From Escherichia coli (GTDB lineage Bacteria > Pseudomonadota > Gammaproteobacteria > Enterobacterales > Enterobacteriaceae), in the NCBI RefSeq assembly GCF_003334255.1, contig NZ_QOWU01000161.1: a stretch of 1,341 bases of DNA; one strand, given 5' to 3'. The notes below the pieces were generated by a model that was not told the DNA's origin, made no database searches, and worked only from the letters and a program-made list of their open reading frames with translations. A program made the position numbers and the translations under genes. This document shows, piece by piece, positions 1,059-1,341 of this stretch; position 1 is the first letter of the stretch; each line of letters begins with the position of its first letter.

Positions 1059-1067
1059 GGGAGCCGC

Positions 1068-1096
1068 ATAATAACGACGCGTAATTAATTCTTCAA
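1068..1096 (-). promoter_or_regulatory. Candidate sigma70 promoter of the tRNA cluster (TTGAAG-N17-TATTAT) with GC-rich discriminator
   Basis: Minus-strand read: TTGAAG (plus 1096..1091), 17-nt spacer, TATTAT (plus 1073..1068), then GCGGCTCCC immediately before the tRNA-Ile 5' end at 1058. The -35 hexamer starts 3 nt after the methyltransferase stop codon. A GC-rich discriminator is typical of stable-RNA promoters. Motif-based only. Confidence 0.4.
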
Positions 1097-1098
1097 TA

Positions 1099-1341
1099 TC
1101 ATCCGTTCTGGCTGACTAAATCCTGTACTTCCCTGACCGTCTGCTCAAAACGTTCAGTCTCCAGCTCAACGCCAGTTGCACGACGCCCGAGCGCCAGTGC
1201 CGCTTTCACTGTCGAACCCGACCCCATGAAAAAATCTGCAATCAGGTCACCCGGACGACTGCTAGCGCTGATTATCTGCTGCAGCATTTCTGCCGGTTTT
1301 TCGCACGGATGTTTCCCGGGATAGTACTGCACCGGTTTATG
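1099..1341 (-). CDS. DNA methyltransferase, C-terminal fragment (beta-class N6-adenine/N4-cytosine type, PF01555-like); 5' end lies beyond the window
   Basis: Seen in sequence: the minus-strand frame is open to the window edge at 1341 (the ORF track's M at 1332 is an internal GTG) and ends at TGA 1101..1099. The translation carries KHPCEKP followed by DFFMGSGST, matching the HP-x-x-KP and FxGxG(S/T) SAM-binding motifs that I recall from the C-terminal half of this methyltransferase family. Target base (A vs C) cannot be decided from this fragment. Confidence 0.7.
   Translation of the reverse strand, partial: HKPVQYYPGKHPCEKPAEMLQQIISASSRPGDLIADFFMGSGSTVKAALALGRRATGVELETERFEQTVREVQDLVSQNG

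Follow-up and report, generated by a model that had tools for sequence, protein, structure and literature searches.

A putative sigma-70 promoter of a self-contained ileZ-argN-argO tRNA unit among the late genes of a lambdoid prophage of Escherichia coli

The segment 1059..1096 (minus strand) directly upstream of the tRNA genes of a lambdoid prophage is very probably the sigma-70 promoter of a self-contained ileZ-argN-argO unit; from the evidence described here, the probability of this reading was estimated as about 0.85. The window, i.e. the whole stretch of E. coli DNA that was analysed, has 1,341 nucleotides. The predicted unit would comprise the promoter, ileZ (reading AUA), argN (tRNA-Arg UCG), argO (tRNA-Arg UCU) and an intrinsic terminator. 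It would be embedded in the lambdoid late region, between Q/pR' and an accessory slot, which holds stx2AB in the Stx phages and terB/tciA-tciB here.

A lambdoid prophage of E. coli JE86-ST05 showed 100% identity to the window; its annotated order is Q antiterminator, 65-aa ORF, DNA methyltransferase, tRNA-Ile, tRNA-Arg, tRNA-Arg, TerB-family protein, DUF3927 protein, SASA esterase and holin. On the minus strand, the first 584 bases share about 94% identity with the methylase-ileZ-argN-argO segment of many Stx2a phages, which carry stx2AB 3' of the tRNAs; the Sakai prophage Sp5 is arranged alike. Some part of the window was matched in 3070 of the 5426 complete E. coli genomes, at up to 14 places per genome. 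The ORF list placed the 3' part of the methyltransferase gene, with its last 80 codons, at 1102..1341 (minus strand), where the ORF runs off the window; in locus L002 the protein has 352 aa and is annotated as a DNA-methyltransferase. The PHROG DNA methyltransferase families also matched the prophage methyltransferase (E = 1e-103 to 1e-107), and the genes 3' of the tRNAs were assigned to the tciA (tellurite resistance/TerB) and tciB families. The L002 annotation and the promoter and terminator scan located the tRNA cassette 3' of Q, pR' and tR', and 5' of the accessory-gene slot and the lysis genes.

The promoter elements are all on the minus strand. A TGA stop codon (1099..1101) closes the methyltransferase ORF and is followed by two bases (TA); the -35 hexamer TTGAAG (1091..1096; 4/6 to consensus) starts at the third base past the stop. 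The promoter scan further gave a 17-nt spacer AATTAATTACGCGTCGT (1074..1090) and the -10 hexamer TATTAT (1068..1073; 5/6 to consensus). Between the -10 and the 5' G of the first tRNA at 1058 (ARAGORN; Rfam tRNA 72.5 bits) is a discriminator and start region of 9 nt, GCGGCTCCC (1059..1067), with 8/9 G+C. The features expected for sigma-70 are therefore present, i.e. a -35 related to TTGACA, a -10 with A at the second and T at the sixth base, and a spacer within 17 ± 1 bp. The first-pass annotation had placed the -35 at 3 nt past the methyltransferase stop, which agrees with TTGAAG at 1096..1091 and TGA at 1101..1099. It had also described a discriminator GCGGCTC before a tRNA whose 5' end is 9 nt from the -10; this distance was confirmed, and the quoted letters are the first seven of the nine. 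The proposed overlap of the promoter with the end of the methyltransferase gene was right in its coordinates but not as an overlap: the core promoter abuts the ORF, and only the sequence upstream of the -35 is coding. An operator-like inverted repeat was also considered in the promoter and was rejected, as there is just a small ACGCGT-centred palindrome in the non-conserved spacer.

Three tRNA genes follow on the same strand: an ileZ-type tRNA of the tRNA-Ile2 type with anticodon CAT and an encoded CCA (983..1058; ARAGORN, Rfam, RefSeq tRNA-Ile), an argN-type tRNA-Arg (TCG) 9 nt past ileZ (897..973; ARAGORN, Rfam 55.1 bits, annotation), and an argO-type tRNA-Arg (TCT) 13 nt past argN (807..883; ARAGORN, Rfam 65.7 bits, annotation). 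The terminator scan revealed an intrinsic terminator, GGCTCGC-TTTT-GCGGGCC with a T run, at 769..792 (minus strand; -14 kcal/mol, z = -3.6). The order Ile2(CAT), Arg(TCG), Arg(TCT) with short spacers is the same as in the annotated Stx2 phages and Sakai Sp5. In an Rfam search of the window with a permissive threshold, nothing was found beyond these three tRNAs and sub-threshold noise. ARAGORN called the first tRNA Met(CAT), yet it is of the ileZ/tRNA-Ile2 type, with 68/76 identity to the host ileX and the C4-G69 and C5-G68 pairs kept; its CAT anticodon is presumably lysidine-modified and reads AUA. The length of the ileZ-argN spacer (974..982 in the window) depends on the allele, with either 9 nt or 7 nt.

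A 9/12 match to the consensus hexamers is weak evidence when taken alone, and it is not rare. Markov shuffles contained 0.40 nine-of-twelve sites per strand of the window, and the promoter tool found two sites in the window compared with 0.9 ± 0.9 per shuffled window. Shuffles with a site whose -10 ended 5-12 nt 5' of the tRNA amounted to 0.3%, or to 2% for a distance of 4-60 nt. Conservation weighs more heavily than the match itself. Viral contigs were scanned with a 21-nt pattern of the ileZ T-arm, which is independent of the promoter; 120 loci were obtained, and 88 ileZ copies had sufficient flank. The arrangement TTGNNN-16/17-TAYTAT-9/10 nt was present directly 5' of ileZ in 86 of these 88 loci, which are related by descent and recombination, so that such counts do not represent independent events. 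The two exceptions have TTGAAA-16-TATTAT about 33 nt upstream instead. Among the 86 loci, the -10 is TATTAT in 85 and TACTAT in one, and the spacer has 17 bp, or 16 bp in one of the variants, its length being kept while its sequence varies. The distance from the -10 to the tRNA is 9 nt, or 10 nt in one lineage. In the alignment of the 21 distinct variants, the -35 always begins with TTG, the -10 is constant at five of its six positions, and the base at -1 of the tRNA is always C; no spacer column and only one of the nine discriminator columns are invariant. Invariant columns thus make up 8/12 of the hexamers and 1/38 of the upstream, spacer and discriminator sequence (Fisher p = 8e-6; 21 variants). 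The commonest allele has the -35 TTGCAG (3/6), which is under the threshold of the consensus scan, and the Sakai orthologue was therefore missed by that scan.

The element was kept with ileZ in at least seven upstream contexts. These include the full methyltransferase, a 37-codon methyltransferase remnant (Sp5/933W), an intrinsic terminator hairpin directly before the -35 (L023 and L025), and four further unrelated contexts. The promoter is also found where ileZ heads a Lys-Thr-Gly cluster. This combination of invariant hexamers, a variable spacer and discriminator, and many contexts is what a functional promoter belonging to the tRNA module would be expected to show.

The conservation extends to the 3' end of the cassette. 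The argO terminator is kept in most of the related loci; its loop is TTTT, TTCG or TACG, and its stem is intact. The genes 3' of it differ (stx2A, terB/tciA and others), and the promoter alleles and the downstream genes are freely reassorted among the loci. From these comparisons, the promoter, the tRNAs and the terminator would appear to travel together as one mobile, moron-like cassette. Morons are promoter-gene-terminator units in the late operons of lambdoid phages, a concept of Juhala and Hendrix. The tRNA unit resembles them in having its own predicted promoter and terminator inside a late operon with variable flanks; it differs from them in its cargo, which is three tRNAs and not a protein gene.

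The promoter of the ileZ-argN-argO cassette in the Stx2 phages 933W and Sp5 is orthologous: it is also located directly before ileZ, as TTG-17-TATTAT-9 nt followed by the three tRNAs and the terminator, and the cassettes share about 94% identity with the window. The two differ in the -35 (TTGCAG in 933W/Sp5, TTGAAG in the window) and in the discriminator (CCTGCGCCC in 933W/Sp5, GCGGCTCCC in the window). Moreover, 933W/Sp5 has a 37-codon methyltransferase remnant past tR' and stx2AB downstream, whereas the source prophage has a full-length methyltransferase and terB/tciA-tciB.

In the Sp5/933W-type Stx2 phages (L123 1105..1222 in Sakai Sp5; 7-9 viral loci), just the last 37 codons of the methyltransferase remain, and this remnant is bounded directly by the tR' terminator, at which StxS has its 3' end, and by the tRNA promoter. 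The common end-point of the deletion reflects either descent or a need for sequence 5' of the -35. In seven loci (L030, L060, L028 and related), ileZ and the promoter head a Lys-Thr-Gly or Lys-Lys-Gly cluster with spacers of 1-3 nt, which replaces argN-argO.

The end of Q in the source prophage is overlapped by a pR'-like site, which is followed by a tR'-like hairpin and two more terminator-like hairpins, all of them before the methyltransferase; in the absence of Q, pR' transcripts in a lysogen would thus be expected to end before the tRNAs. By dRNA-seq, Sy et al. 2020 (PMC7547250) mapped primary 5' ends in E. coli Sakai and reported a TSS of this kind that drives the tRNAs and is located between tR' and stx2AB. 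The Sakai pR' +1 was placed at L123:846 and tR' at about 1103, using the RNase E site (GU|AUU at +173) and the 258-nt length of StxS (PMC7547250); about 160 nt are thus left between tR' and ileZ2 (1266) for the published TSS. A relaxed scan of this interval revealed TTGCAG-17-TATTAT (1228..1256) and two other 8/12 matches, and the published TSS probably belongs to the orthologue of the window element. For the stretch from Q to stx2, Abu-Ali et al. 2010 (PMC2858043) also list a 'pS tRNA promoter'. In the orthologous Stx2-phage cassette, both the promoter and its independence of the late operon are thus already known. The suggestion of the first-pass annotation that the tRNAs are expressed independently of the late operon is supported, i.e. 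by the context-free conservation, the hairpins on the pR' side, the argO terminator and the Sakai primary TSS.

Two other explanations of the element were weighed. One holds that the match arose by chance or is the vestige of a promoter captured with a host ileX-like gene, so that the tRNAs would come solely from the processed, Q-antiterminated pR' transcript. The frequency of such matches in the shuffles would allow this, the tRNAs lie inside the late operon and are transcribed on induction anyway, and the ileX-like geometry could be inherited rather than selected. However, the hexamers and their spacing have stayed invariant in at least seven contexts while the spacer and the discriminator diverged. 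The terminators directly upstream in L023 and L025 and downstream in most loci are sensible for an autonomous unit only, and the published primary TSS for the tRNAs came from a mostly lysogenic culture (PMC7547250). This explanation is considered very improbable.

It is hardly more probable that the promoter serves mainly for a basal, induction-independent transcription of terB/tciA-tciB (stx2AB in the Stx phages) by read-through of the argO terminator, with the tRNAs as a by-product. The cassette is always directly 5' of the accessory-gene slot, and a consensus promoter scan of the minus strand between the argO terminator and terB found no separate promoter. Nevertheless, a strong and conserved hairpin with a T run is located in between, and the promoter alleles are not coupled to particular downstream genes, given their free reassortment. 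Even in loci with other downstream genes and an otherwise different cluster, the promoter stays with ileZ. A promoter of the tRNA unit itself is the preferred reading.

Several observations were made on the accessory pair 3' of the terminator. The terB/tciA gene (636..205) and the DUF3927/tciB-like gene (208..44), both on the minus strand, overlap by 4 nt, and the pair fills the slot that is held by stx2AB in the Stx phages. Similarity was also noted between the ribosome-binding region, AAAGGAAC, and the one of stx2A in Sakai, AAAAGGAAC. The 5' UTR of terB/tciA (637..774, minus strand) can form a long imperfect hairpin (-54.7 kcal/mol, z = -1.9), for which no Rfam match was found; its first 30 nt recur 3' of the terminator in many loci. 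In PHROGs, the description of the tciB family reads 'inhibition of cell division or resistance to colicin'; two tRNA-Arg genes make this a curious neighbourhood, since colicin D cleaves tRNA-Arg.

The spacing of the element also limits where transcription could start. Since 9 nt separate the -10 from the mature 5' end, the start is predicted to fall about 0-3 nt before the tRNA, and the leader of the primary transcript would have about 0-3 nt, as judged from this spacing. Positions 7-9 past the -10 are CCC in the window and mostly pyrimidines elsewhere, position 10 is the G+1 of the tRNA, and C(-1)/G(+1) of ileZ are invariant. The fixed distance, the pyrimidines at positions 7-9 and the invariant C(-1)/G(+1) make a start at G+1 itself possible. 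RNA polymerase would then begin precisely at the mature G+1, both in ileZ and in the host ileX, and the product would be a leaderless tRNA with a 5'-triphosphate that needs no RNase P cut; this is unlikely. Leaderless tRNAs are present in Nanoarchaeum, and a start at G+1, if true, would provide a bacterial counterpart of them. A start 1-3 nt upstream would instead place the leader among the shortest of the E. coli range.

The first-pass annotation took the tight packing, together with the discriminator, as a hint of growth-rate or ppGpp sensitivity; such packing is not exceptional, because the host ileX shares this geometry and leaders as short as 2 nt occur in E. coli (PMC7049720). The leaders of first tRNAs in E. 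coli range from 2 to 52 nt, and aminoacylation is still possible with leaders of <8 nt (PMC7049720); the valU leader, for example, has 9 nt (PMC4176162). The host ileX (tRNA-Ile2), whose tRNA is identical to ileZ at 68/76 positions, has a C-rich stretch past its -10 (TATAAT), which lies 10 nt away from the mature 5' end, and a very short leader is also predicted for it. The ileX gene differs in being monocistronic and in having T, not C, at position -1 of the tRNA; its -35 region and spacer could not be aligned with those of the prophage, and a TTGCGA is just 13 nt from the -10. The ileX-like geometry suggests that ileZ was captured together with an ileX-like promoter.

The promoter might in addition, as the first-pass annotation suggested, be of the stringent type (rrn P1/tRNA-like), with a G+C-rich discriminator, a short-lived open complex, a shut-off by ppGpp/DksA in starvation and a growth-rate-dependent activity. 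This is a possibility to be taken seriously, though it is somewhat more doubtful than not. The window allele, with 8/9 G+C past the -10 and a GCGG start, resembles the GCGC discriminators that are reportedly found at E. coli stable-RNA promoters. The second base past the -10 is C in the window and in 77 of the 86 loci, but not in the TTTT/TTTC lineage; a C at this position weakens the sigma region 1.2 contact at rrnB P1. The promoter also drives tRNAs, and tRNA promoters are generally under stringent control. Together with the near-consensus -10, these features of the window are shared with the stringent promoters of the rrnB P1/tyrT/leuV type.

The orthologues, however, do not share the composition of the window allele. 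The GCGG start was found in just 7/86 loci; the commonest discriminator, TCTGCTCCC, has 6/9 G+C, and that of one lineage, TTTTTGGCTC, has 3-4 of 10. As the discriminator G+C of the orthologues varies from 3/10 to 8/9, G+C richness is not conserved in this element. At 17 bp, the spacer is optimal and differs from the 16 bp of rrn P1. The region from -40 to -60 is the coding end of the methyltransferase, TTTAGTCAGCCAGAACGGATGATA, without an A/T tract, and there is thus no A/T-rich UP element; the element has neither a 16-bp spacer nor an UP element with FIS sites, and in these respects it differs from the rrnB P1/tyrT/leuV type. A sensitivity of the window allele to ppGpp and growth rate is plausible from its sequence, and the 'stringent' discriminator is, in the loci compared, specific to alleles and not a trait of the family.

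In the proposed model, pR' transcripts in the lysogen would end at tR' and the later terminators. Host RNA polymerase would meanwhile make the three rare-codon tRNAs from the promoter at 1059..1096 and end at the hairpin past argO. After induction, the Q-modified polymerase would read through the whole region and add to the tRNA supply. RNase P would presumably separate the tRNAs by cleavage at the 5' end of both argN and argO.

The promoter had already been noted in the Stx phages, and the value of the present analysis is therefore mainly confirmatory. The comparative data add that the promoter, the tRNAs and the terminator appear to move jointly, and that the 'stringent' discriminator belongs to particular alleles. 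The promoter would explain how lambdoid prophages are able to provide tRNAs for rare codons (AUA, AGA/AGG and CGA/CGG) in the lysogenic state, and not solely on induction. Such a supply could benefit horizontally acquired genes that are rich in rare codons, e.g. stx and other virulence genes.
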